Of a DNA stretch of 64,000 nucleotides, positions 9,565 to 33,847 are shown one piece after another. A model generated the notes under the pieces. The model did no database searches and was not told the DNA's origin. It saw only the letters and a program-made list of their open reading frames with translations. A program made the translations under genes and the position numbers. The DNA lies in the NCBI GenBank assembly GCA_029570375.1, contig JAKPXB010000038.1, positions 5,899-69,898 on the forward strand, written 5' to 3'. Positions within the stretch are counted from its first letter, which is position 1. The number at the start of each line of letters is the position of its first letter. Origin of the DNA: Bacillota bacterium (lineage in GTDB: Bacteria; Bacillota; Clostridia; Saccharofermentanales; DTU023).

Positions 9565-9697
9565 ATGTGTTTCCGGGGCGGGGTGTGATTCCCGATCGGC
9601 GGTGATGCCTCATTGGAGGACAAGCCCGCGAGCGTTCCGCATGACTGGGTGAGAATCCCGGGCCGGCAGTATAGTCTGAATGGGAGGGAACAGAGAT
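9565..9697 (+). promoter_or_regulatory. FMN riboswitch (RFN element)
   Basis: RFN core is read directly: CGGGGCGGGGTGTGATTCCCGATCGGCGGT...AGCCCGCGAGCG...GGTGAGAATCCCGGGCCGGCAGTATAGTCTGAATGGGAGGGAA. Confidence 0.9.
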
Positions 9698-9714: not shown

Positions 9715-9739
9715 CGCCCCGAGTATACGGGGCTTTTTT
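9715..9739 (+). terminator. FMN-riboswitch expression-platform terminator
   Basis: GCCCCGAGTATACGGGGC stem followed by TTTTTTG, just before the ribU RBS. Confidence 0.75.
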
Positions 9740-9767
9740 GTTCCGGAGAATTGTGAGGAATGTACAG

Positions 9768-10406
9768 ATGAATGAACAAAAAGCAGTGGGCGAAAGTGCC
9801 CTCCACTGCGTCAGGAACAAGCGCTCGGCAGGCGCCGTGTGGATTGCGAAAGCCGGGATTCTGTCGGCAGCCGCGATCGCTCTTATGTATTTTGAATTTG
9901 CCCTTCCGCTGTTCCCGGCTTTCCTGAAATTTGATTTCGCGGATATTCCGGCGCTGTTGGCCGCTTTTTCCATGGGACCGTGGGCAGGCATCGCTGTTCA
10001 ATTTGTCAGAAACTTAGTTCATCTTCCCGCGACAAACACAATGATGGTCGGCGAATTGGCCAACTTTGTGATGGGCAGCTTCTTCGTCGGTGTCGCGGGG
10101 CTGTTCTACCGCCGGATGAAGACGAGAAAAGGGGCGCTGCTGGCGATGGCGGCGGGAACTGTCTCTCTCACTGTCTCGGGCGCGCTTATCAATTATTTTT
10201 TTACGATCCCGTTCTATATCGCAGTGATGGGGTTCTCAATGGACGCAATCATCGGCATGACGAAAACAGCCGGGAATACGCTCGTCAACGATCTGCCTTC
10301 GTTGATTCTATGGGTTTTTGTTCCTTTCAACATTCTGAAAGGGACAGTGGTATCCGTGCTCGTCGGCCTGATCTATAAGAAACTTAGTCCGCTGCTTCAC
10401 CGTTGA
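9768..10406 (+). CDS. ribU: ECF transporter S component, riboflavin-type (RibU-like)
   Basis: Multi-TM S-component (FEFALPLFPAFLKFDFADIPALLAAFSMGPWAG) directly behind the FMN riboswitch. ATG at 9768 has a GAGGAA RBS, whereas the track start at 9738 lies in the terminator. Confidence 0.85.
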   Translation: MNEQKAVGESALHCVRNKRSAGAVWIAKAGILSAAAIALMYFEFALPLFPAFLKFDFADIPALLAAFSMGPWAGIAVQFVRNLVHLPATNTMMVGELANFVMGSFFVGVAGLFYRRMKTRKGALLAMAAGTVSLTVSGALINYFFTIPFYIAVMGFSMDAIIGMTKTAGNTLVNDLPSLILWVFVPFNILKGTVVSVLVGLIYKKLSPLLHR

Positions 10407-18478: not shown

Positions 18479-19639
18479 ATGAATAAACCCAAACCAGACC
18501 GTTGTGTTTCCATCCTGCGCGAGCTGGTGGCCACGGATACGCGGCAGCCGGAAGGGAGAGAGCGCCGGCTGACGGATTATATCGAGCGGATATTCGCGGG
18601 GTTCGATGTCGAGACTCGGCGTATAGACCACAGCGAGGAGAGAAGTTCTCTGGTCGTGAAACTCCCGGGCGTTTGTCCGGACGGGGGTATCGGGTTCTTT
18701 GCCCACCTCGATACCGTCGCGTTTGGCGATGAAGCCATTTGGACAGATGAGCCGCTGAGCGCGGTGATCCGGAATGGGGTGATGTATGGGCGGGGGACGG
18801 CCGACATGAAAGGCGGAGCGGCCGCGATGCTTGAAATGGCGCTCTGCCTTCTCGAATCCGGTACTATGCCGCCCAAACCTGTCTATCTCTGTTTCACCGC
18901 GGATGAAGAAAAGGGAGGGACCGGCGCCGCGAGTCTGCTTGATCTGCCGTGGATACGGGAGTTGGAATGCGGAGTCTTCTGTGAACCGAGCGCTGAACGC
19001 ATCGGTGTCAGGGAGAAAGGAGCGCTTTGGATGCGTGTCAGCATCCGGGGCGTACAATCGCACAGCTCCAACCCGGCCATCGCTGTCAATGCATTGGATA
19101 AGGCCTTCGAGTTTTATCATCGGCTGATTGAGCGCATTGATTTCGGGCCGGCCGATCCGCTTCTCGGCCGGACGACAGCGGCAATGACACAGATGCACGG
19201 AGGGGTCATGACCAATGTCATCCCGGGAGAAGCATGGTGTGAAATCGACATCCGGATGCTGCCTGGACAGCCGACTCATGTCTTTCTCGACGAAGCATTC
19301 GAGGCGAAGCGGGAACTTGAAAAACAGGAACCGCGCCTGAAGGTTGATATTACCGTGCTCAGCCGTCATGAAGCAAACAGCACGCCTGAGGATCACCCGT
19401 TTGTCCGGCGCGTCCAGCGTGTGTGCAGTGCCGGAGGGTTCAACAGTTCACTCAGAGGATTGCTGTTTTTCACCGACGCCGGCCGCGTCACGCCGACACT
19501 GAAGATTCCCTATGTCATCTGGGGGCCCGGCGACGACAGGGAAGCCCACCAGATCGACGAGAAAATTGAGCTCTCTTCCGTTCACCGGATGGCAGGTCTT
19601 TACCTGGACTTAGTCATGTTTAGCCAATCGTCTTCTTAG
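18479..19639 (+). CDS. M20 family metallopeptidase (ArgE/DapE-like)
   Basis: M20 motifs HLDTV, GRGTADMKGG and ADEEKGG. Composition is GC-rich like the host. Confidence 0.85.
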   Translation: MNKPKPDRCVSILRELVATDTRQPEGRERRLTDYIERIFAGFDVETRRIDHSEERSSLVVKLPGVCPDGGIGFFAHLDTVAFGDEAIWTDEPLSAVIRNGVMYGRGTADMKGGAAAMLEMALCLLESGTMPPKPVYLCFTADEEKGGTGAASLLDLPWIRELECGVFCEPSAERIGVREKGALWMRVSIRGVQSHSSNPAIAVNALDKAFEFYHRLIERIDFGPADPLLGRTTAAMTQMHGGVMTNVIPGEAWCEIDIRMLPGQPTHVFLDEAFEAKRELEKQEPRLKVDITVLSRHEANSTPEDHPFVRRVQRVCSAGGFNSSLRGLLFFTDAGRVTPTLKIPYVIWGPGDDREAHQIDEKIELSSVHRMAGLYLDLVMFSQSSS

Positions 19640-19674: not shown

Positions 19675-20433
19675 TTAAAGAGTCATTAAAATATCGACCA
19701 ACTGTTCGGCAAGCAATGACGCATATGTTTGTCCTTTTTCAACGGAGGCGAGGCAGGGGTTCCCGATCGTTCCGTTGTCCGGAGATAATTCACCGGTCTG
19801 CCAGCCTGAATAATATGGTTGAAAATCGAGCTCATTGCAGCGGTTAGCTGAGATTTCATCTTTTTTTACCAAATTCTCTCTGTAGAACAACATAAGTGAT
19901 GTTTCTCTTTCGCCAGCATGAATATCAGAAAGAGAACAGGATTCAAAGATATGTGTGTTTTCTGATGAAGAAAAGGTATTAGACCAAAGGCTAATTAAAA
20001 ACACTTTTGTTCCATACTTTTGCTCCCATTCCTGTGAGCAGGCATTAATCAGATCCGTATTGCCGCCGTGTGAATTAAACACAACAAGTTTTTTAAACCC
20101 ATGAATAGATAGGCTTTCAATAACATTTTCTATAATGGATGCAATCGTACGACAGTTCAGGGAAACCGTTCCCGGGAAAGATAAGTGCTCGTGGCTGTTT
20201 CCGTAAAGTAACGGGGGAAGGCACAGGATATTTTTTAAAAGATTGTTATGCATTGAATTTCGCTGACAAATTGATTGCGCTTGCTTTAACACTTCCATGA
20301 GAATCAGATTATCTGTTCCGAGAGGTAAATGCCTGCCATGTTGCTCAAACGCACCAATAGGGAAAAGAATGAGTGATCGGCTCCGATCAATTTTATCAAT
20401 ATCCGCCCACGTAAATTCTGATAAATTGTCCAT
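19675..20433 (-). CDS. creatininase-family (creatinine amidohydrolase fold) hydrolase
   Basis: Family motifs EQHGRHLPLGTD, NSHGGN and HAGERETS. ATG at 20433 sits 1 nt after the stop of the upstream gene. The longer track ORF to 20712 overlaps that gene. Confidence 0.85.
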   Translation of the reverse strand: MDNLSEFTWADIDKIDRSRSLILFPIGAFEQHGRHLPLGTDNLILMEVLKQAQSICQRNSMHNNLLKNILCLPPLLYGNSHEHLSFPGTVSLNCRTIASIIENVIESLSIHGFKKLVVFNSHGGNTDLINACSQEWEQKYGTKVFLISLWSNTFSSSENTHIFESCSLSDIHAGERETSLMLFYRENLVKKDEISANRCNELDFQPYYSGWQTGELSPDNGTIGNPCLASVEKGQTYASLLAEQLVDILMTL

Positions 20434-20434
20434 G

Positions 20435-21799
20435 TTATAGCCCTGCTCTCTGAAGTATGCTGTCAACTTTTCTGCGGGCGGCTCGTGCTGTTTTCTCCTC
20501 ATCGATTCCGAGGAGAAAACCCTTCTCGGCGACAAGATTTCCATTGACGTATACAAAGTGAGCCGGCTTTGATACACCGACTGTTCCCAGAAGATTCGCT
20601 GCGTCCTTCTCAGAGCAAACAAACTCCAGGGAGGAAGCCTCAACAGCAAAAAAGTCAGCGGCTTTTCCTTCCTCGAGTGATCCGATATCATCGCGTCCAA
20701 GGATTCCGGCACTCCCTCTCGTGGCGATTTTTAACATGTCATATCCTGTAGGGGCTTTATCTGACCAGGTGAGTCGATGTAATAAATAGGCTGCCCGGAT
20801 TTCAGCCATCAGGTTAGAACAATCATTACTGGCGCTTCCGTCGACTCCCAGTCCAAGAGGGACGCCGAGTTCGAGCATTTCGGGGACTCTGCAGACACCT
20901 GAGGAAAGTTTCATATTCGAGACAGGGCAATGAGCGACACCGGTGCCTGTCTTCGCCAGACGCTCTAATTCTTCATCGTCAAAATGGATACCGTGAGCAT
21001 ACCAGACATCATTACCCGTCCACTCGCAGCTCTCCATATAATCGAGAGGTCTTTGTCCGAACAAATCGAGACAGAACTGTTCCTCATCGTGAGTCTCGCA
21101 GAGATGCGTATGCAATCTGACCCCGAGTTTTCGCGCGAGACGAGCGGATTCTTTAAGCAGATCGGTAGTGACGCTGAATGGTGAACAGGGAGCCAGGGCG
21201 ATCTGTCTCATCGAAAAAGGAGAAGGATCGTGGAATTTATTGACGAGTCGTTCGCTATCTTCCAGAATAGTTGTTATATCTTGAACGAGATCATCAGGAG
21301 GCAGTCCTCCCTCACTCTTGCCGCGAGACATACTGCCTCGTGTGGCGTGTAAGCGTATGCCCAGCGCTTCAGCCGCGTCAAACTGCCTGTCAATGAAATT
21401 ACCAGAGTGTTCTTTTGGGAAAACATAGTGATGATCCATCACTGTTGTACAGCCATATCTCAGGAGCTCTCCCATCGCTGTCAAAGAACTATAATAAATA
21501 GATTCTTCATCTAAATAGCGCCATATTTCATACAACGCCTTCAACCAGGGGAACAATTCGAGATTCTGAACTTGAGGAAGGTTTCTTGTAAATGTTTGAT
21601 AAAAATGATGATGTGTGTTGATGAGGCCAGGATATAAAATAAGGCGGCTTGCATCGATTGTGCGATCAGCGCTCACGTCCTCATAACCAATATAATCAAT
21701 GATGTTCCCGTGAATACAAAGGTTTGCATTTGCCAATACACGATTCGAGTCGTCTACTGTCACGATAGCCTTTGCGTTCTTAAATAGCGTTTTACTCAT
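20435..21799 (-). CDS. amidohydrolase, 8-oxoguanine deaminase-like (COG0402 / SsnA-TRZ-ATZ group)
   Basis: PGLINTHHHFYQTFTR, TRGSMS..GGLPP, IALAPCSPFSVT, RLHTHLCETHDEEQFC, HCPVSNMKLSSG and GLGVDGSASND. ATG at 21799 follows GGAG; 21811 is an alternative start. Confidence 0.85.
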   Translation of the reverse strand: MSKTLFKNAKAIVTVDDSNRVLANANLCIHGNIIDYIGYEDVSADRTIDASRLILYPGLINTHHHFYQTFTRNLPQVQNLELFPWLKALYEIWRYLDEESIYYSSLTAMGELLRYGCTTVMDHHYVFPKEHSGNFIDRQFDAAEALGIRLHATRGSMSRGKSEGGLPPDDLVQDITTILEDSERLVNKFHDPSPFSMRQIALAPCSPFSVTTDLLKESARLARKLGVRLHTHLCETHDEEQFCLDLFGQRPLDYMESCEWTGNDVWYAHGIHFDDEELERLAKTGTGVAHCPVSNMKLSSGVCRVPEMLELGVPLGLGVDGSASNDCSNLMAEIRAAYLLHRLTWSDKAPTGYDMLKIATRGSAGILGRDDIGSLEEGKAADFFAVEASSLEFVCSEKDAANLLGTVGVSKPAHFVYVNGNLVAEKGFLLGIDEEKTARAARRKVDSILQRAGL

Positions 21800-21851
21800 T
21801 GCCAACTCCATAATGTGATATTGATGATGCCAATAAACCGTTTTCTTATGA

Positions 21852-21882
21852 CTGCACTTGCCGTTTTAAACGGCAAGTGCAG
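21852..21882 (-). other. intercistronic stem-loop between the two amidohydrolase genes
   Basis: Perfect inverted repeat CTGCACTTGCCGTTT A AAACGGCAAGTGCAG (15-nt arms, so a 13-14 bp stem once a minimal loop opens). No U-tract on either strand. Confidence 0.7.
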
Positions 21883-21899
21883 CTGTCTACTTAAATCAC

Positions 21900-23147
21900 T
21901 TATAAGCCTTCTCTGTGACGTATGACTTGCGGCGGGAAAAATAAATGTTCCGTAATTCCCGTTACGCAGGCGTCAACACCGTCCACTTTGCAATAACGCG
22001 CTGTGGGTCGAGAATCCTTACCCCGGAAAGCGACAATAGCTCCATCTACAATAACCATCGAATTGCCAAATGGATCGCCGTGCTCAATCGAGTCGAGCAC
22101 ATCGTTTCCACATCCTCCCGGCGGTTTATCCAAAACCTGTAAATCTGCTTCACGTCCAACCTCTATTTTCCCGGTGTTTAACCCATATATATCAGCAGGA
22201 TTCCCGGTTGCCATAGCGATACAGTCAACGGCGGATAACTCGTTCAGTGAAGAAGCTTTGACAATCGCTCTATTAATAGCGCCGGACAGAGAAGCTTGTC
22301 CGGTCGGCGCATCGCTGCCGAACAAGACCCGCTTCAGTTGAGATTTTTTATCCAATGACTGAAGGATTTTGTTGAAATTAACAAAGTTGCCATTAACAAC
22401 AAGTTCCAACGGAGTTTCGCACTCATCGATTAAGCGTTGAATATGATAGTACTCGACAGCAGTGGATCCACCATTCGTGTGTGCAACTTTATGAGGCTTG
22501 AGTTTGAGAATTGCTTCAGAGGTAACCCATGAAGAACCGGGAATCGAAGGCGGCGCCAAGTGAATAGAGTAGAAAAAATGATATTTCTTTGCCCACTCGA
22601 GCATAGGGGCGACTTCTTCGGGATCGGAAAGCCCCCCTCCACCTATTTCTGCGATAATCCAAACGCCAGCTTCGGCCATTTCTTTGAAATCCTGTTCCGT
22701 TAATCCGTGCACAAGGACAAGGGCGCCGCCGTGCATTTTCAGAGCTCCTCCAGGTCGAAAGCGATCGAAAACTCTCTTCGCCATAATAGCAGAAGCCTTG
22801 CAACCAATAGGATCATCATAGAAACGAGGCCATCCGGGACCCTGCTCCCCCTCAGAGATCATACTTGTTGTGCCTCCGTATAATGCGTCGGAATAACAAC
22901 CTACTGCATTTCTTTGAGGTGCGTAATCATCAAGTGTGTTATGCACATGGGCATCGATAAAGCCAGGCGCAACACATTGACCATCGGCATCAACGACTGT
23001 TTCGATGTCAGTCTTATCAACTTCGTTGTAATAGCCGATTTCGTGGATTAGTCCATTGCGGACTACAATCGTATCACCGGGTAAGATGCCTTTGCCAAGA
23101 TCGCCACTTATGATCTTGTCAATGTTTTTTACTAATAGATCGTTCAT
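21900..23147 (-). CDS. amidohydrolase, enamidase-like
   Basis: PGFIDAHVH metal site. LKMHGGALVLVHGLTEQDFKEMAEAGVWIIAEIG, IPGSSWVTSEAILKLKPHKVAHTNGG and FGSDAPTG resemble, from memory, the Eubacterium barkeri enamidase family. ATG at 23147 follows AAGGAGGAAT. Confidence 0.75.
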   Translation of the reverse strand: MNDLLVKNIDKIISGDLGKGILPGDTIVVRNGLIHEIGYYNEVDKTDIETVVDADGQCVAPGFIDAHVHNTLDDYAPQRNAVGCYSDALYGGTTSMISEGEQGPGWPRFYDDPIGCKASAIMAKRVFDRFRPGGALKMHGGALVLVHGLTEQDFKEMAEAGVWIIAEIGGGGLSDPEEVAPMLEWAKKYHFFYSIHLAPPSIPGSSWVTSEAILKLKPHKVAHTNGGSTAVEYYHIQRLIDECETPLELVVNGNFVNFNKILQSLDKKSQLKRVLFGSDAPTGQASLSGAINRAIVKASSLNELSAVDCIAMATGNPADIYGLNTGKIEVGREADLQVLDKPPGGCGNDVLDSIEHGDPFGNSMVIVDGAIVAFRGKDSRPTARYCKVDGVDACVTGITEHLFFPPQVIRHREGL

Positions 23148-23217
23148 ATTATTCCTCCTTCTTTTCATTAATGAACAATCGATTATGCAATGATGCATAG
23201 TTAATGTAAGTGTTACC

Positions 23218-24174
23218 TTAGGTGTCAGTCATGGCTTCTCTGTTATAATTTGTGCCTAATGCGGCTGGTGATTTTGAATTTTTGGAAGTCATAATCATAA
23301 CGAGAACGGTTAGCAGGTAAGGAAGCATTAATAGCAGATGGTAAGGAACATTTAATCCTACTGATTGCAGTCTAAGCTGAAAAGCATCCATCGTTCCAAA
23401 AAGAAGCGAACTGAAAAAAACCGGTAATGGTTTCCACCTGCCGAAAATAACGATAGCTAAAGCGATGAACCCCCGGCTCGCTGTAATATTGTCAACAAAT
23501 CGGTTTAAGGACAATACTGACAGAAAAGTCCCTCCCAGACCGGCCAGTACTCCGCAAATCATCATAGAAAGATATCTTGTTCTACAGATATTCACGCCCA
23601 TCGTTTCCGCCGCCAGCGGGTATTCGCCTGCTGATCTGATTTTAAGGCCGAAGAAAGTTCTGTTGAAAACGAAGCGGGAGACTATGACCAAAGCGATGGC
23701 TATGTAAAAAAGGAAGTGCTGACTAAAAAGAATTTCACCGAGGACAGGTATATTGGACAAAAGGGGAACAGGTGTTGAAACACCTCCGGAGACATTCGCC
23801 ATCGGAGGGGCAATGGTCACTCCGAAAACAACCCTGTACCAAAAACTGGTGAATCCCAGGGCAAACATATTTAGAACGATTCCAATCACAACATGTTGAG
23901 TTTTCCACTGGATGCAGGCGGTTGCCATTAGAAGAGCCTGAAGCATTCCAGCCAATGCGCCAGCTAGGAGGGCGAGAACGACACTCCCCGAATAATGGCC
24001 AACTATAAAAGATGCAAACGCACCCATGAGCATCTGTCCTTCGAGATTAATATTCAGGATACCGGATCTTTCTGCATATATTTCGCCGAGCGCGGGCAGC
24101 ATAATCGGAATAGACATCCTGACCCCGGCCGCGAACAAAGAGACTAAGAAATCACGTGTTAACAAAACAGACAT
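23218..24174 (-). CDS. ABC transporter permease (BMP/nucleoside-type system, second permease)
   Basis: 318 aa multi-TM protein in an operon with the BMP-family binding protein. Confidence 0.88.
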   Translation of the reverse strand: MSVLLTRDFLVSLFAAGVRMSIPIMLPALGEIYAERSGILNINLEGQMLMGAFASFIVGHYSGSVVLALLAGALAGMLQALLMATACIQWKTQHVVIGIVLNMFALGFTSFWYRVVFGVTIAPPMANVSGGVSTPVPLLSNIPVLGEILFSQHFLFYIAIALVIVSRFVFNRTFFGLKIRSAGEYPLAAETMGVNICRTRYLSMMICGVLAGLGGTFLSVLSLNRFVDNITASRGFIALAIVIFGRWKPLPVFFSSLLFGTMDAFQLRLQSVGLNVPYHLLLMLPYLLTVLVMIMTSKNSKSPAALGTNYNREAMTDT

Positions 24175-24177
24175 TAA

Positions 24178-25272
24178 TTATGATTCCTCCCTTTCGTCTG
24201 GTGGCAGTCTTTTTCGCTGGGCATGTTGAAAATTTGCACGGATTTTTGGCATGACGAGAATGGAAAAAACCACGACACTCTGGATAACGGTTACGATGCT
24301 CGTTGGTACATTCACCGCTATTTGCATAGAGTTGACCCCAACGGTCAGAGTACTGATGAGTAAACTGCCGACAATTATACCCAGAGGCCGATATCTCGCC
24401 AAAATGGCGATCATAACCGCTGTAAAACCAAAGCTTGAGCTTATTCCTTCTAACACTCGATAGTAGGTGCCGAAAACTTCAATCATCCCCGCGAATCCCG
24501 CAAAGCCGCCCGCGATAAACATAGATGTGACAGACAGTTTTTTAACAGCGATTCCGCCGTATTGTGCGGCTTTTGCAGATTTCCCAATCGTGAGAAGCTG
24601 GAACCCAAAAACAGTACGGTTCATGACAAACCAAACGAATAAAGCCAGTAATGCGACAAAAACAATCCCCCAATGGGCTCTTGAACCTGCGATAAGTTTA
24701 GGTAACTGTACGATCTGGGGGATTGCTCTGGTCTGGGGAATTCCTCCAGGTGCCTGAAGCGGATTCGAAACGAGAAAACCGATCAGGAAGAGGGCGATAT
24801 AGTTCATCATGATAGCGATAATCACTTCACTGGTATCAATTGTTGCCCTTAAAAATCCGGCGAATCCTCCCCATATTCCGCCCGCAAGTATCGATACGCA
24901 GATCGCGGCGATCCAAACAATCCATACGGGTGCTTCCAGGTAAATACCAATAATAGCCGCGGAAATGGCCCCCATATAAAACTGTCCATCACCGCCCAAA
25001 TTTGTCATGCCTGTTGCAGCCGCGATACTTACCCCGAGGCCAATTATTATAATCGGCGTTGATTTCGCGAGTATTTCCAAAACTGAGCTGGTATTTCTGA
25101 AAGCTCCTCGGATAATGAATTCAAAGACTGAAATAGGGTTTTCACCTAGTGATAATATAAATATGATGCTTACAATAATGGCCATTGCGATGGCAAGGCA
25201 GGTATTTGCAACGGAATCCAGAAAACTTGGTCTGTTTTCTCTTTTCTTAAACAAAAACTGTTTCATCGGCAA
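24178..25272 (-). CDS. ABC transporter permease (BMP/nucleoside-type system, first permease)
   Basis: 364 aa multi-TM protein. It overlaps the ATPase gene end by 10 nt. Confidence 0.88.
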   Translation of the reverse strand: MPMKQFLFKKRENRPSFLDSVANTCLAIAMAIIVSIIFILSLGENPISVFEFIIRGAFRNTSSVLEILAKSTPIIIIGLGVSIAAATGMTNLGGDGQFYMGAISAAIIGIYLEAPVWIVWIAAICVSILAGGIWGGFAGFLRATIDTSEVIIAIMMNYIALFLIGFLVSNPLQAPGGIPQTRAIPQIVQLPKLIAGSRAHWGIVFVALLALFVWFVMNRTVFGFQLLTIGKSAKAAQYGGIAVKKLSVTSMFIAGGFAGFAGMIEVFGTYYRVLEGISSSFGFTAVMIAILARYRPLGIIVGSLLISTLTVGVNSMQIAVNVPTSIVTVIQSVVVFSILVMPKIRANFQHAQRKRLPPDEREES

Positions 25273-26810
25273 GCTTCCTCATCCGAGCCCCCCATTAACA
25301 GACCGATCTGACTTAAACTCAGTTCATCAGGTCTGAAAGGGCGTGATAATTTTCCGTTAGATATAACGGCCATCTGATCCGAAAGTGATATTATTTCATC
25401 AAGTTCTGTCGAGATGAGAAGGATTCCCGCTCCGGAAGACAGCAGTTCAAGCAAGCGGGTATGAATAAATTCAATTGCCCCGACATCTAACCCCCTAGTC
25501 GGATGCATGGCGACTAATACAACCGGATCTGATGATATTTCTCTGGCCAGAATTACTTTTTGGATATTCCCCCCTGAAAGCTGTCCTACTAACATGTCGC
25601 GATGGGGGATACGTATGTCATAGTCTTTAATGAGTCGATCACCAAGCATATGCAGCTTTTTTTTGTCAATCTGTCCGAAATGTTTTCTGAACGTCTTTGA
25701 ATCTGAATTTCTGAAAAAAATATTCTGATCTAGAGAATAACTGGCAATAGTTCCCATACTTCGTCTGTCTTCCGGGACAAACGCAAGCCCCATCTGTTTT
25801 ATTGAGCGGGAGCTCCTGTTAGTAATCTCGTTTCCATTTAGAAATATCTTTCCCTTTGTTACATGCCTGAGGCCTGCCAACGCTTCAACTAACTCTGATT
25901 GGCCATTTCCATCAACACCGGCAATCCCAAACAGTTCTCCTCTGTGGATAGTCAGACTCAGGTCTTTTATCGTTTGAGTATTCCGCTTACCATGAACCTC
26001 TATATTTTTTATCTCCAAAACCCGGTCTTTCATTTTGTTATCAAATAACCGGGGGCCTTTCTTTACCGAAAAAACAACGTCGCGGCCAACCATTCGACAA
26101 GCAAGATCTTCTTTGTTCGTTCGATTAGTTGTGACACTATCGACAACTTTTCCTTTGCGAAGAATAACAACGCGGTCACTAATATCCAAAACTTCATCCA
26201 GTTTGTGGGATATGAAGATAATGGATAGACCAGCCGCCTTAAGCTCCTTTAGCGAACTAAATAATTTTATTTTTTCTTGTTCATTTAATACACCTGTGGG
26301 TTCGTCGAGTACGAGGATCCGACATTCCCCAAATAGTGCTTTCAGAATCTCTACCTGCTGCTGTAATCCAACTGGCAAATCCTGAACAATCGTGTCCAGG
26401 ACAATTGATAAATTATATTGAATGGAATGTTTTTTTATCTGCTCCCGAATGACCTGATGATTCACTAAACCGTTTCGTTTCCCTGAGATACTGAGTGCAA
26501 TATTTTCATAAGCATCAAACGCAGGAATAAGCATAAAATGTTGATGTACCATCCCGATCCCTAGAGCAATGGCATCAAGTGGAGAGTTGATCGATACAAC
26601 CTTTCCATCAATGCTTATTTCTCCGTGGTCTGCCTGGTATAAACCAAAAAGAATATTCATTAATGTGCTCTTGCCGGCACCGTTTTCTCCAAGTAAAGCA
26701 ACAATTTCTCCTTCATTCACTTTAAGATCTATTTGATCATTGGCGGGTTTTCCATCAAAAAATTTTGAGATACCCTTCATCTCAAGGATGGTATTTGCGG
26801 GATTAAGCAC
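25263..26810 (-). CDS. ABC transporter ATP-binding protein with duplicated NBD (sugar/nucleoside type)
   Basis: First NBD has GENGAGKSTL. The second NBD is degenerate, with LSGGNIQKV. GTG at 26810 is preferred because the track ATG at 26855 lies inside a 12-bp hairpin. Confidence 0.85.
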   Translation of the reverse strand: MLNPANTILEMKGISKFFDGKPANDQIDLKVNEGEIVALLGENGAGKSTLMNILFGLYQADHGEISIDGKVVSINSPLDAIALGIGMVHQHFMLIPAFDAYENIALSISGKRNGLVNHQVIREQIKKHSIQYNLSIVLDTIVQDLPVGLQQQVEILKALFGECRILVLDEPTGVLNEQEKIKLFSSLKELKAAGLSIIFISHKLDEVLDISDRVVILRKGKVVDSVTTNRTNKEDLACRMVGRDVVFSVKKGPRLFDNKMKDRVLEIKNIEVHGKRNTQTIKDLSLTIHRGELFGIAGVDGNGQSELVEALAGLRHVTKGKIFLNGNEITNRSSRSIKQMGLAFVPEDRRSMGTIASYSLDQNIFFRNSDSKTFRKHFGQIDKKKLHMLGDRLIKDYDIRIPHRDMLVGQLSGGNIQKVILAREISSDPVVLVAMHPTRGLDVGAIEFIHTRLLELLSSGAGILLISTELDEIISLSDQMAVISNGKLSRPFRPDELSLSQIGLLMGGSDEEACR

Positions 26811-26829
26811 GATGATCGCCTTTCTCTTT

Positions 26830-26860
26830 CCACCGTGCCTCTGTAAAGGAGGCACGGTGG
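26830..26860 (-). other. intercistronic stem-loop between the binding-protein and ATPase genes
   Basis: Perfect 12-bp stem CCACCGTGCCTC / GAGGCACGGTGG with a 7-nt loop and no U-tract. Confidence 0.7.
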
Positions 26861-26887
26861 GACTGGTTGTGAAAAAACGGGATTGAA

Positions 26888-27946
26888 CTAATTATCCATC
26901 TTATGGTCGATGCGTTCGAGAATGTAGGGAACTACTAATGTTCCCGCCTTGATCTCTTCAGTTGCTTTAGCCACCATATTCTTTATTTCCTGTGGGATTT
27001 TGCTGTCGAAATTGTGCCATGGGGTAATAAAACACGTACCATCTTGCACCCCCGGTTCCCATAAGCCGCCAAACGATCCGTCAAGAATCCGCTTTGCCTG
27101 TTTGACTATAACGCTCTTATTGTCAGTTACAATACATGTCATGATGAGTTCAGGAGCGATTTCAAACTGGTCAGCACCGTACCCGACAATCTTTATATTT
27201 TTCTCAATACAGGCTTGTATGGCGCCCATTCCCGTGCTGTCAGCTGTTTGACAAATAATATCCGCCCCCAAGTCAATTTGTGCTTTGGCGGCTTCTTGTC
27301 CCTTGTTAGGATCTTCAAAAGTGCCTGTCACGACTCCGTAAATTTTAGCGTCTGGATTGGAAAACTCAACGCCTTTGACAAAAGCAGCCATATTAGAAAG
27401 CTGTGAGGGTATTTCCAGTCCCGCTACGTAACCAATAATGTTAGTTTCAGTCATTCCACCTGCTACGATGCCTGCTAAATAAGCCGCTTCATACTCTTTC
27501 ATGTCCATGAAACCTACATTTTTTGGCATATTATCAACAGTAACGCCATCAGGCATCTTTCCCGAAACGAAAAAATTCACTTCCGGAAAATCGGGTGCCA
27601 CCCTAATAGCAGGCTCACCAAACTCAAACCCATGCCCTATTACGAGATCGAACCCTGAGTTTGCGTAGTTGCGAAAAGCTTCTTCAATTGCTGAGATTTG
27701 AACGCTTTCCGTGAAGGCAACTTTGTATCCTTCCTTCTCCAGTTCCTGAAGTCCTGCATAAGCATTAGCGTTCCATCCCCCGTCGTTAAGTGAGCCGGGG
27801 AGAATCAAGGCAACTTTTAATTCTTTCTTCTGTTTTCCATCCATTGAAGAAGGAGTTGATTGTTCTGGCGTTTTTCCCCCTTTATCACATGCGAAACAGC
27901 TGATAAGCAAGAGCATGCAAAGGATTAATGCAAAAAATCGTTTCAT
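26888..27946 (-). CDS. BMP-family (PnrA/Med/TmpC-like) ABC substrate-binding lipoprotein
   Basis: Lipoprotein signal MKRFFALILCMLLLISCFAC, then the BMP fold (KVALILPGSLNDGGWNANAYAGL). The start is taken at the internal Met of the track ORF. Confidence 0.88.
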   Translation of the reverse strand: MKRFFALILCMLLLISCFACDKGGKTPEQSTPSSMDGKQKKELKVALILPGSLNDGGWNANAYAGLQELEKEGYKVAFTESVQISAIEEAFRNYANSGFDLVIGHGFEFGEPAIRVAPDFPEVNFFVSGKMPDGVTVDNMPKNVGFMDMKEYEAAYLAGIVAGGMTETNIIGYVAGLEIPSQLSNMAAFVKGVEFSNPDAKIYGVVTGTFEDPNKGQEAAKAQIDLGADIICQTADSTGMGAIQACIEKNIKIVGYGADQFEIAPELIMTCIVTDNKSVIVKQAKRILDGSFGGLWEPGVQDGTCFITPWHNFDSKIPQEIKNMVAKATEEIKAGTLVVPYILERIDHKMDN

Positions 27947-28034
27947 TATCTTCTCTCCTTTTTGGTGCGACTCGTGGTTGCCGCGGTTTGAATCATTCGA
28001 TTGTCGAACCGTATACCGTCGACTGTATATTGTT

Positions 28035-28063
28035 AAAGTATCATTGAATTTAAATAAAGTCAA
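28035..28063 (-). promoter_or_regulatory. candidate promoter of the island transport/hydrolase operon
   Basis: On the minus strand: TTGACT, 17-nt spacer, TACTTT. Confidence 0.3.
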
Positions 28064-28074
28064 TGATAATCTTC

Positions 28075-28101
28075 TTGCATTTGGTGTTAATAATGTATAA
28101 T
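28075..28101 (+). promoter_or_regulatory. candidate promoter of the GntR-family gene
   Basis: TTGCAT, 15-nt spacer, perfect TATAAT. It is followed immediately by the palindrome TTGTACAA (28102-28109). Confidence 0.35.
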
Positions 28102-28240
28102 TTGTACAATAACGCTAAGTATGATTGAGTTTAAATTTATAGAAATATGTTTAATCTCCTTAGCATTAAACTAGAATCTATCTTCGCAAATATGGTATAT
28201 CTTTTATTGCAGAAGTAGGATATAGAGACAGGAGATAAGA

Positions 28241-28993
28241 ATGAGTTTTCAGTTCGAAAAAGTCGGAAGAAGTATTACCCTTATCGAGAAGGCGTATAGT
28301 GCGCTTTTAAAAGTAATTGGAGAAACATCACCCAATCACAACAAGCTTCCTTCTGAAGAAGATATTGCCTGTATGCTAGGCGTTAGCAGAACAACCATAC
28401 GCGAAGCATTAAACCAATTAGTTTCTGAAGGTTTGATTTCCAAAGTTCCTGGCAAAGGTTACTATGCCCATCGATCTGTGCATGACCTCAAAAATAGAAT
28501 TGATCTATATCCTGATTTTTATAAATTATTGACTTGTTATTACAGAGAAGCCGTTTTGACAATAGCCAACATTGAGAAAAGAAGTGCATCTCCAAAAACA
28601 GAGATTGAGTTTAAGAAGAATGACATTAAAATTCGGGAAGTTTACGCCATGCGTTGGATTTATTCGGCAAATGGAACGAGAATGTTTGTCGGAGATCTTG
28701 AATTCCCTGTTGAGTATATCGTTAAGCCTTTCCGAGATTTAAATCATATAAAGGGGTTGTCTGATTTTTCAGATCAGTATATGCGTTTTCCTATTACGCA
28801 CTGCACAATGACTCTGGATATATGCACGTGTGTTGAGTCATCACAGGCTCTTGGACTCGGCGATCAGATCAAACCCGCTTTGTGTTGGTTTGAATCGATA
28901 TACAACTTAAATGATGAGATTATTGGTTGTGGCAGATATTTTATAAACCCCGACTCAATGAAATTATCCATCAATGCAGCTATCTTGAAATAA
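28241..28993 (+). CDS. GntR-family transcriptional regulator (HutC/UTRA-like)
   Basis: N-terminal winged HTH (SEEDIACMLGVSRTTIREALNQLVSEGLISKVPGKG) plus a roughly 170-aa effector domain. Divergent from the transport operon. Confidence 0.88.
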   Translation: MSFQFEKVGRSITLIEKAYSALLKVIGETSPNHNKLPSEEDIACMLGVSRTTIREALNQLVSEGLISKVPGKGYYAHRSVHDLKNRIDLYPDFYKLLTCYYREAVLTIANIEKRSASPKTEIEFKKNDIKIREVYAMRWIYSANGTRMFVGDLEFPVEYIVKPFRDLNHIKGLSDFSDQYMRFPITHCTMTLDICTCVESSQALGLGDQIKPALCWFESIYNLNDEIIGCGRYFINPDSMKLSINAAILK

Positions 28994-32607: not shown

Positions 32608-32689
32608 GCGAGAGAAGTAGCTGAGGCTAACGATTGAAAAACAGCGGCGGCGACGCCCCAACCACTTGAGAGAAGAAGAGGGCTCAAAC

Positions 32690-33847
32690 ATGAATGATCT
32701 CCAAATGCAGTTTAAGGAATTAACACTTTCTCCTGACCGCGCCGTCGGCGTCGCGGATGAGAAGGGCATGATTGTTGTCTCCAGCGATGAGAAACTCGTT
32801 GGCAGTCAGGATTCCGCCATCCGCGCGTTTCTCGCTTCAGGCGATATTCAATCATTTGCGGGAGAGCGCACCTACAGGATTGTCGACCGCGCCAACGGGA
32901 CGCGTCTGATTTGTTTTGTGGACGGGACGGATGAGTTTGCCGCCGGATATGTCGAGCTCCTGTCACGCTGGCTCATGGCTGAGCTGAGGCAGCACGATGA
33001 TTTTGAGGAGCGCGGACAGCGCCAGAAGCTGTCTTTCCTTAAGAATGTCCTGCTGGAGAACGAACTCCCAGGGGATATACCGCTGAAAGCACGTGAATAC
33101 CGTGTGAAATACAATGTCCGAAGGCTTCTGGTGATCATGCGCACAAAGCCTGAAGTTTTCAAGGCTTGTTGTGAGGCGCTTGAGGCGCGGTTTGGCGATC
33201 GCGAAGACGATTATATTCTGCCTATGGATGAGGAGAATATTGTCCTTCTGTTCGAGTCGCCGGACGAAGAGGGCTGCGAGGTGAGAGAGGCGCGCTTCCG
33301 GAAGCTTGTTGCCGATATCAAAAAAGACGCCATGGCGGATGTCAAACTCGGCGTCAGCATGAACTTCACCTCATTGAAAGACACCGCCAAAGCGTACAAA
33401 GAAGCTTCGCTGGCGCTGGTCGTCGGGGATATTTTCAAGAGCGGGACCCCCGATGTGATGATGTACTGCAACCTTGGATTAGGGCGTTTGATCTATCAGC
33501 TCCCAATCACGCTCTGCGAGCTGTTCCTGCGTGAAGTGTTCGCGCCGGGGACATACGAAGCACTTGACTCCGAGACGCTGTTGACGATCGATAAATTCTT
33601 CGAGAACAGCCTGAATGGCAGCGAAACATCGCGCCAGCTTTTCGTTCACAGAAACACGCTCGTGTACCGGCTCGACAAAGTCGAGAAAATCACTGGGCTG
33701 GATCTCCGCAATTTCGAAGACGCTGTTTTGTTCAAGCTGGCGGAAATGGTCAGAGACTATCTCACGTACGTCGAAGACAACAAGGTGACGCGTTACGCCC
33801 GCATGAATCTGGAGTTAGGCGCCGAAGACTACCTGCCCATGGTCTAG
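32690..33847 (+). CDS. PucR/CdaR-family transcriptional regulator
   Basis: C-terminal PucR-type HTH (SETSRQLFVHRNTLVYRLDKVEKITGLDLRNFEDAVLFKLA). Confidence 0.82.
   Translation: MNDLQMQFKELTLSPDRAVGVADEKGMIVVSSDEKLVGSQDSAIRAFLASGDIQSFAGERTYRIVDRANGTRLICFVDGTDEFAAGYVELLSRWLMAELRQHDDFEERGQRQKLSFLKNVLLENELPGDIPLKAREYRVKYNVRRLLVIMRTKPEVFKACCEALEARFGDREDDYILPMDEENIVLLFESPDEEGCEVREARFRKLVADIKKDAMADVKLGVSMNFTSLKDTAKAYKEASLALVVGDIFKSGTPDVMMYCNLGLGRLIYQLPITLCELFLREVFAPGTYEALDSETLLTIDKFFENSLNGSETSRQLFVHRNTLVYRLDKVEKITGLDLRNFEDAVLFKLAEMVRDYLTYVEDNKVTRYARMNLELGAEDYLPMV

Follow-up and report, generated by a model that had tools for sequence, protein, structure and literature searches.

The subject of this analysis is a gene cluster in a 64-kb stretch of DNA, hereafter the window, taken from contig JAKPXB010000038.1 of a Bacillota bacterium. 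The cluster is an operon of seven co-directional minus-strand genes, running from 28063 down to 19675, which specify a Bmp lipoprotein, an ATP-binding cassette (ABC) ATPase, two permeases and three hydrolases; with a divergent regulator gene it makes up the block 19675–28993 (Table 1). The hydrolases, which we have named EnaL (enamidase-like amidohydrolase), DeamL (8-oxoguanine/isocytosine-type deaminase) and CreL (creatininase-fold hydrolase), end the operon, and their genes are exactly enclosed by coordinates 19675–23147, with the DeamL stop and the CreL start one base apart. An earlier interpretation made from the letters of the sequence (the sequence-only reading) had placed three consecutive hydrolases here. 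All three are minus-strand open reading frames (ORFs) at this position, their families are confirmed, and the motifs which it quoted (HHHFYQT, LAPCSPFSVT, GVDGSASND, EQHGRHLPLGTD, NSHGGN and HAGERETS) are all present in the translations.

Table 1. Features of the operon and regulator block, in window coordinates
Feature	Position	Strand	Evidence
CreL, 252 aa, creatininase-fold PF02633 metal hydrolase	19675–20433	-	Pfam Creatininase 208 bits, E 2e-61
DeamL, COG0402 "AtzB cluster"	20435–21811	-	Amidohydro_1 E 2e-59; NF006055 576.6 bits
EnaL, 415 aa, amidohydrolase superfamily	21900–23147	-	Amidohydro_1 E 2e-15; PDB 2vun E 9e-92
ABC permease 2, BPD_transp_2 type	23218–24174	-	
ABC permease 1, BPD_transp_2 type	24178–25272	-	
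ABC ATPase, duplicated ATP-binding domains	25263–26855	-	Translation; two ABC_tran domains on identical metagenomic gene
BMP/PnrA-family lipoprotein, substrate-binding protein of ABC importer	26888–27946	-	Pfam Bmp 183 bits
Divergent control region	27947–28240	.	Sigma-70-like promoter and palindrome; consensus matches only
GntR-family regulator, divergent from operon	28241–28993	+	Pfam GntR E 1e-13; N-terminal winged helix-turn-helix the only family-model match

The hydrolases and their importer

DeamL is the most readily placed of the three. It lies above the curated cut-off of NCBIfam NF006055 "8-oxoguanine deaminase" (576.6 bits against 532), and it matches the structures 7ww2 (VCZ) and 3hpa (Pa0142-type) with E values of about 1e-121 each. 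The residues which bind zinc and base in VCZ complexed with 5-fluorouracil are H68, H70, Q73, L87, F88, W90, L91, Y130, C207, F210, H234, E237, H271, D322 and S326 (PMC10481359); these metal/ligand positions are identical (15/15) in DeamL and in 27 of 27 cluster-linked homologues, and in our tree the characterised 7ww2 and 3hpa enzymes are nested within the cluster-linked clade (99%). Judged by these comparisons, DeamL is an orthologue of the characterised 8-oxoguanine/isocytosine deaminases. Such enzymes produce urate from 8-oxoguanine, xanthine from guanine and uracil from isocytosine, cytosine not being a substrate (PMC6186785, PMC10481359), and the wider "AtzB cluster" of COG0402, as defined in a sequence similarity network, includes guanine-analogue enzymes, for example N2,N2-dimethylguanine hydrolase (PMC13054789). 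Because of these known reactions DeamL almost certainly strips the 2-amino group from a 2-amino-4-oxopyrimidine ring. The link to 8-oxoguanine made in the sequence-only reading is thus strengthened, at the level of reaction type, by orthology and an identical pocket; the scavenging of damaged purines which it proposed is not singled out, since the same pocket also accepts guanine and isocytosine.

In Pfam, EnaL matches general amidohydrolase models only. Its only close solved relative is enamidase (2vun; full-length alignment, 312 bits, E 9e-92), and across the EnaL alignment H67, H69, K137, H139, H196, H223 and D279 do not vary, these residues being aligned with enamidase positions. The EnaL tree has a 99% split (Shimodaira–Hasegawa-like approximate likelihood-ratio test, SH-aLRT) with 2vun and CreL-less homologues on one side, while the window's protein belongs to another, separate clade (97%). 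Of the 39 rows in this clade 33 have CreL, and most have DeamL, within 10 kb; the six rows without CreL are two truncated contigs and four archaeal sequences. The nearest tree neighbour of 2vun is a Tissierellia sequence, L051 (SH-aLRT 88, both on long branches). On this phylogeny EnaL is related to enamidase yet belongs to a distinct clade and is not its orthologue. The two also differ in a substrate-side loop, which reads ISAGS--PHFPGRPKD in enamidase and ISEGEQGPGWPRFYDD in EnaL; the invariant acidic loop ISEGEQGP of EnaL, in place of the basic loop of enamidase, would be a better fit for a neutral heterocycle rich in NH groups than for the anionic intermediate of nicotinate breakdown.

CreL (252 aa, as called on the identical sequence in metagenomes) shares the PF02633 fold and the metal/catalytic residues with creatininase, MftE, ArfB and IolN; E30, H32, D41, H122, H172 and E177 are invariant among the cluster-linked copies. 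Unlike those proteins it falls under every subfamily cut-off (creatininase, EC 3.5.2.10, TIGR04448, 112.9 bits against 235; MftE, 112 against 172; IolN, 51; ArfB, 21) and lies in its own EnaL-linked group, to which 33 of the 36 EnaL-linked copies in the CreL tree belong (SH-aLRT 82, inner nodes 92 and 97). A further 55 creatininase-family proteins from metagenomes form a 98% clade without any linked member. The linked CreLs are 27–44% identical to that of the window, which is the same range as for unrelated family members, and it is the tree rather than a ranking by identity which separates them. No NCBIfam equivalog (June 2026) is reached by either EnaL or CreL.

The four genes preceding the hydrolases have the composition of a BMP/PnrA-type importer: a Bmp binding protein, an ATPase with duplicated domains and two BPD_transp_2 permeases. 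The ORF of the lipoprotein is open up to 28063, its likely start being the ATG at 27946. Its best PDB matches (101–126 bits) are 4p98, 3s99 (adenine-bound), 7x0r and AtzT 6pi5 (guanine-bound); the nucleoside binders BmpD (75 bits) and PnrA (57 bits) score lower, and riboflavin-binding RfuA is also lower than the base binders. Like AtzT and the Brucella protein 3s99 it keeps both aromatic positions which stack on the base. The ligand imported here is more probably, to judge from these similarities, a free base than a nucleoside.

The module across genomes

A protein search gave more than 1,000 EnaL relatives, and 80 loci came from a scan in which each species was represented by one genome; these loci were searched with the window's proteins by tblastn, and all their neighbouring ORFs were clustered. 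Forty non-redundant loci consist of the window and relatives at least 45% identical in EnaL. Within 10 kb of EnaL, CreL is present in 30 of these 40 and DeamL in 29, window included. CreL occurs in none of the 38 loci, mostly from Proteobacteria, whose EnaL homologues are 38–43% identical. The conserved core is the EnaL–CreL pair, which is co-inherited across phyla, and DeamL is a usual, not a universal, companion. The order importer, EnaL, DeamL, CreL is shared by Desulfitibacter and by an organism closely related to that of the window, and all three enzymes lie within 10 kb of one another, in varying order, in many Oscillospiraceae, Spirochaetia, Fusobacteria and Chloroflexi. The occurrence of the trio is far beyond chance, the same three genes being present together in dozens of species-level genomes that span several phyla. 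Two metagenome contigs carry CreL-clade genes with no EnaL within 8 kb, L096 after a BMP importer and L104 followed by a DeamL homologue, so that the pairing of EnaL with CreL is strong, not absolute.

Four importer types serve the module: BMP in 14 loci, SBP_bac_8 ABC in 12, RbsB-type ABC in four and an energy-coupling factor (ECF) type in one. The coupling to a BMP importer noted in the sequence-only reading is thus not obligatory. The regulators are of GntR or HTH-cupin type, GntR homologues flanking the cluster in 10 related loci.

The hosts of the linked clade include Oscillospiraceae, Blautia, Anaerotruncus colihominis DSM 17241, Peptococcaceae, Sphaerochaetaceae, Fusobacteria and Anaerolineae, all of them anaerobic lineages to judge by their names. 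The module itself is present in Clostridia, Spirochaetes, Chloroflexi and Fusobacteria; the EnaL clade has members in Spirochaetes, Chloroflexi, Fusobacteria and Archaea and none in Bacilli or the known purinolytic Clostridia. The EnaL tree crosses phyla, a Leptolinea sequence for example standing among those of Oscillospiraceae, which argues for horizontal transfer. We regard the module as widespread and horizontally mobile, with EnaL and CreL at its core. The archaeal members (Bathyarchaeia, Hadarchaeota) have EnaL without CreL. In a group of loci from Hadarchaeota and a metagenome-assembled genome (MAG) labelled Methanobacteriota (L042–L046), EnaL homologues stand beside a molybdopterin oxidoreductase with a 4Fe-4S subunit; aldehyde:ferredoxin oxidoreductase, an arginase-family protein and DUF2284 are further neighbours.

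In some genomes the cluster is present twice, the second copy being diverged (L037 alongside L022, L041 alongside L013). In these second copies (L037 9812–15861; L041 9899–13873) an ornithine-cyclodeaminase/mu-crystallin-family protein is encoded between EnaL2 and CreL2, and CreL2 is directly followed by an FMN-reductase-like protein; a reduction step may be part of this variant.

Related loci also carry accessory genes, for a uridine-phosphorylase-like PNP_UDP_1 protein (12 loci), a PfkB kinase (17), a GlmS-C-like SIS protein (9), two small AllA-like cupins (8) and an ADP-ribosylglycohydrolase (4). None of these ribose-handling or other accessory genes is present in the window's operon. In Sphaerochaetaceae (L003 14976–16334) the PfkB kinase carries a fused NADAR domain which scores above the cut-off of TIGR02464, "riboflavin biosynthesis intermediates N-glycosidase", and in Anaerolineaceae (L038 17645–19446) a PfkB kinase is followed by a Glyoxalase-NADAR gene. 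Such a kinase-then-N-glycosidase pair suggests action on a ribosylamino compound. The PNP_UDP_1, PfkB, NADAR and ADP-ribosylglycohydrolase genes indicate that in related loci the base would also arrive as a riboside, and the accessory genes raise the possibility of ribosylamino-pyrimidine intermediates. Five loci from Chloroflexi, Bacillota and Hadarchaeota (L005 7115–9202, L008 8432–9322, L013, L038 and L044) have corrinoid or methyl-transfer genes (MtmB family, B12-binding, Pterin_bind) next to the cluster, a weak hint of N-methylated substrates.

In the window itself the 9.3-kb block 19675–28993 has a G+C content of 43.4%, compared with about 55% in both flanks, and its orientation is opposite to that of its plus-strand housekeeping neighbours. 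These are the genes for histidyl- and aspartyl-tRNA synthetases, LepA, a tRNA and an M20 peptidase, and then those for SIMPL, Crp, formate–tetrahydrofolate ligase (Fhs), FtsEX and the ribosomal protein operon. In a relative whose EnaL is 88% identical (L089) the same operon adjoins Crp and Fhs and has different genes on its other side. Because of the low G+C, the inversion and this one-sided difference, the block looks like an acquired island that has persisted in the lineage. The identical sequence was found on long contigs from manure, digester and sludge metagenomes; the sequencing runs found to contain the stretch were all of metagenomic DNA, and no RNA runs were among them.

Between the GntR and BMP genes lies a minus-strand sigma-70-like promoter candidate (28090 to 28063, 10 of 12 consensus matches), beside which a perfect 8-bp palindrome, TTGTACAA, at 28102–28109 is a possible operator. 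We rejected the M20 peptidase (18479–19639) as part of the module, its linkage not being kept in relatives, and also as YgeY, for which its 121 bits are far under the cut-off of 321. Just past the formate–tetrahydrofolate ligase gene is one for a PucR-type regulator (GGDEF_2 plus HTH_30; 32666–33847), the position of which is kept in the contigs of the relative (L089, L090) and in copies of the window's own sequence (L091–L093). PucR-family proteins control purine catabolism in Bacillus. Elsewhere in the window, a thiamine pyrophosphate riboswitch (61 bits; 43–145) lies upstream of genes for an NMT1/THI5-like binding protein, a permease and an ATPase (135–2920), which probably form a thiamine-pyrimidine (ThiXYZ-type) importer, and a flavin mononucleotide (FMN) riboswitch (96 bits; 9565–9695) lies directly upstream of an ECF S-component gene (9738–10406), probably that of a riboflavin transporter.

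Proposed function and its alternatives

We propose that the BMP-type importer would take up a planar, purine-like compound, in this organism more probably as free base than as nucleoside, and that DeamL would then remove its 2-amino group, giving xanthine from guanine or urate from 8-oxoguanine. EnaL, as an enzyme of the dihydroorotase/hydantoinase/enamidase type, would open a lactam or ureide bond of the dioxo product. Enzymes of this subtype (dihydroorotase, hydantoinase, allantoinase, enamidase) cleave ring carbonyl–nitrogen bonds; that EnaL keeps the His, Lys and Asp positions of enamidase favours such a carbonyl, in a lactam or ureide bond of the deaminated product, as its point of attack. 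CreL would cleave the acyclic amide or ureido group so exposed, or a second ring, freeing more ammonia together with CO2 or formate; this role is proposed by analogy with lactam- or formamide-cutting members of its family. GntR presumably keeps the operon repressed as long as neither the substrate nor an intermediate is present. We infer the order of the EnaL and CreL steps and the bonds that they cut. We consider less likely a variant in which CreL would be a deformylase like ArfB and EnaL would open the imidazole ring, be it that of guanine or that of xanthine: amidohydrolases of its subtype attack carbonyls, not amidines, and CreL scores only 21 bits against ArfB.

In general terms, we lean towards the view that the operon would be a self-contained module by which anaerobes release nitrogen from an imported guanine-type base without redox chemistry. 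The importer-coupled hydrolytic deamination and ring or amide opening of an N-heterocycle put forward in the sequence-only reading is in this sense supported by the comparisons, and no characterised pathway matches it. As to the substrate, guanine, processed via xanthine, is our leading guess, and a tentative one.

A number of observations weigh against this proposal. The hydrogen-bonding residues of AtzT, which binds guanine with a dissociation constant of 110 nM, are swapped in the window's binding protein (E165 to S, N218 to T, N220 to D); with the guanine-reading side chains replaced, guanine itself is not implied, and the ligand probably differs from that of AtzT. The Sphaerochaetaceae loci are without DeamL, so deamination is not essential to the chemistry of EnaL and CreL. 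A search with Rfam found no riboswitch at the operon, either in the window or in seven diverse related loci. The trees are quick searches with SH-aLRT support only, and that for the CreL group is moderate (82). The known xanthinase is slow on the aromatic pyrimidinedione ring, with a kcat of 0.1 per s as quoted in PMC12507026. Much nitrogen would be left in the products of a three-step route, and enzymes to act after these steps are not encoded here.

Several other functions might be assigned to these genes. The module might be the published xanthinase pathway or its first two steps, with EnaL as xanthine amidohydrolase, CreL as 4-ureido-5-imidazolecarboxylate amidohydrolase and DeamL as guanine deaminase. 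The chemistry fits, since guanine would yield xanthine and a lactam hydrolase followed by a ureidohydrolase would free nitrogen, but the prenylated FMN (UbiD-type) decarboxylase and two more hydrolases that the pathway is said to require were found neither in the loci annotated with Pfam nor in the recurrent gene clusters. That gene cluster has been known since 2023, and PMC12507026 gives Clostridia and Bacilli as its hosts, whereas the EnaL clade is without Bacilli or known purinolytic Clostridia; nor is any NCBIfam equivalog reached by EnaL or CreL. We think this identity distinctly unlikely. Scarcely in better standing, and unlikely in our estimation, is a route from 8-oxoguanine, in which DeamL would make urate, EnaL would open the non-aromatic imidazolone ring with loss of C8 as CO2 to leave 5,6-diaminouracil, and CreL would open or trim the pyrimidine, the whole amounting to a third, purely hydrolytic, anaerobic route for urate. 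Hydrolytic opening of urate is without precedent, 8-oxoguanine should be scarce in anoxic habitats and yet the deaminase is kept in most loci, and CreL would have no obvious role if the carbamate decarboxylates spontaneously. In its favour DeamL exceeds the 8-oxoguanine deaminase cut-off with the exact pocket; enamidase-like chemistry would suit a lactam with nitrogen on a C=C bond, the imidazolone being an ene-urea close to the enamide cut by enamidase; and oxygen-sensitive diaminopyrimidine intermediates would account for the restriction to anaerobes. The NADAR domains beside PfkB match TIGR02464, the family of YbiA, which we take to cleave 5-amino-6-(phosphoribosylamino)uracil, the compound expected from ring opening of urate or xanthine riboside. 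Species from the guts of poultry and humans, moreover, are among the hosts, and manure is a habitat of the window's organism.

The substrate could instead be another guanine-like heterocycle, either a modified guanine from RNA turnover (m7G, m2G or the queuine/preQ 7-deazaguanines) or a pterin, handled partly at the riboside level, with ribosylamino-pyrimidines deglycosylated by PfkB and NADAR or by ADP-ribosylglycohydrolase. The guanine-analogue enzymes of the "AtzB cluster", such as N2,N2-dimethylguanine hydrolase (PMC13054789), are in keeping with this, as are the corrinoid and methyl-transfer genes in loci from three phyla, the kinase and exocyclic-N-glycosidase pairs in several loci, and the four importer types, the ECF S-component among them having weak RibU-like similarity. 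However, the pocket of DeamL is identical to that of enzymes for plain 8-oxoguanine, guanine and isocytosine, and it reads C-S..S where the dimethylguanine hydrolases have CQNN; the methyltransferase neighbours are confined to five of 40 loci, and the window's operon has no gene for handling ribose. This makes such a substrate quite unlikely. Very improbable is an anaerobic creatinine route through non-orthologous enzymes (DeamL as creatinine deaminase, EnaL as ATP-independent N-methylhydantoinase, CreL as N-carbamoylsarcosine amidase), given that nucleoside phosphorylase, kinase and N-glycosidase genes in at least 17 related loci would make no sense, that the pair of stacking aromatic residues characteristic of purine binders is retained in the binding protein, that the module occurs in lineages of digester and sediment type, such as Anaerolineaceae and Sphaerochaetaceae, where creatinine is unlikely to be met with, and that CreL is under the creatininase cut-off. 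What speaks for it is the match of three hydrolytic steps to three enzymes, the acylguanidine motif which creatinine shares, and the manure and digester habitat. ATP-independent hydrolysis of N-methylhydantoin occurs in anaerobic creatinine degraders.

Returning to a redox-free release of nitrogen from a guanine-type base, one might go further and suggest, as a possibility about which we are doubtful, that EnaL and CreL represent a third strategy for anaerobic cleavage of the purine ring, all-hydrolytic and independent of molybdenum, selenium and flavin, in which EnaL would open xanthine, urate or their ribosides and the creatininase-fold CreL would finish, and which would have spread horizontally among anaerobes of gut, digester and sediment, human gut Blautia and Anaerotruncus included. 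By our own calculation of the atom balance, urate + 4 H2O gives CO2 + urea + NH3 + aminomalonate, so that complete hydrolysis is feasible without a redox step. Recent work has connected the anaerobic breakdown of purines and urate by bacteria of the gut with gout and with urate levels in the host, and the anaerobic routes described so far are two, the xanthinase and the reductive 2,8-dioxopurine pathways. Were the suggestion true, it would supply a missing piece of the recycling of nucleic-acid nitrogen in guts, digesters and sediments, one needing no complex cofactors or redox partners; it would give functions to two large unannotated protein clades, and simple enzymes for engineered purine-clearing probiotics. 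Since a cultured carrier exists, Anaerotruncus colihominis DSM 17241, the question is directly testable.

Comparison with known pathways

The partner enzymes of characterised pathways had been reported missing, and this holds within the 64-kb window. Pfam annotation of 38 of its larger ORFs, counted as the ten operon and flanking genes and 20 others (eight ORFs of at least 220 aa were outside the scan), gave no xanthine or nicotinate dehydrogenase, no ygeW/X/Y, no carbamate kinase and no N-methylhydantoinase, the other ORFs being housekeeping genes; the gene sets of the nicotinate, reductive urate and creatinine pathways were thus not found in the window. No paper among those searched joins enamidase with creatininase or 8-oxoguanine deaminase.

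EnaL shares its fold and the conserved His, Lys and Asp residues with enamidase (Ena, EC 3.5.2.18), which belongs to the nicotinate fermentation of Eubacterium barkeri. The Tissierellia MAG already mentioned provides a positive control for the context of a true enamidase: its orthologue lies in a complete nicotinate-fermentation cluster of the E. barkeri type (L051 352–13292) amid Hgd, DmdAB, Mgm, Mii, a MutL-like reactivase, Dml and Hnr. The window has none of these partner genes, and their absence, together with the separate clade across the 99% split, rules out a true enamidase and nicotinate fermentation here.

The reductive urate (2,8-dioxopurine) pathway employs XdhD, YgfK/UacX, SsnA, HyuA, YgeW, YgeY and YgeX (PMC12507026; bioRxiv 10.1101/2025.04.24.650524). 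It resembles the present module in being a means of anaerobic purine catabolism in gut bacteria which uses ring openers of the amidohydrolase superfamily and ureide hydrolases. To dearomatise the ring, however, it needs molybdenum, selenium and flavin reductases, the genes for which are neither in the window nor recurrent in the related loci.

The hydrolytic xanthinase pathway of purinolytic Clostridia goes back to the work of Rabinowitz in the 1950s. It reportedly comprises four hydrolases of different families and a prenylated FMN decarboxylase, and the first two hydrolases alone are said to let E. coli grow on xanthine as nitrogen source. Unlike that pathway, the module has no UbiD-type decarboxylase or further hydrolases in the Pfam-annotated related loci or the recurrent neighbour clusters, and the taxonomic range of the EnaL clade differs. 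The xanthinase gene cluster was identified in 2023 (Tong et al., Cell Chem Biol 30:1104), and PMC12507026 reports it from Clostridia and Bacilli. Like the route proposed here, the pathway cleaves purines hydrolytically and free of redox steps after conversion to a dioxo compound, by several hydrolases of different families, in anaerobes. No described pathway uses the set EnaL, DeamL and CreL; the arguments against identity with the xanthinase pathway are indirect ones, from gene content, taxonomic range and the NCBIfam equivalogs.

The 8-oxoguanine/isocytosine deaminases described to date are stand-alone detoxifiers of damaged bases or were found by isocytosine selection, and DeamL is unlike them in being part of an importer-coupled, multi-hydrolase operon of anaerobes.

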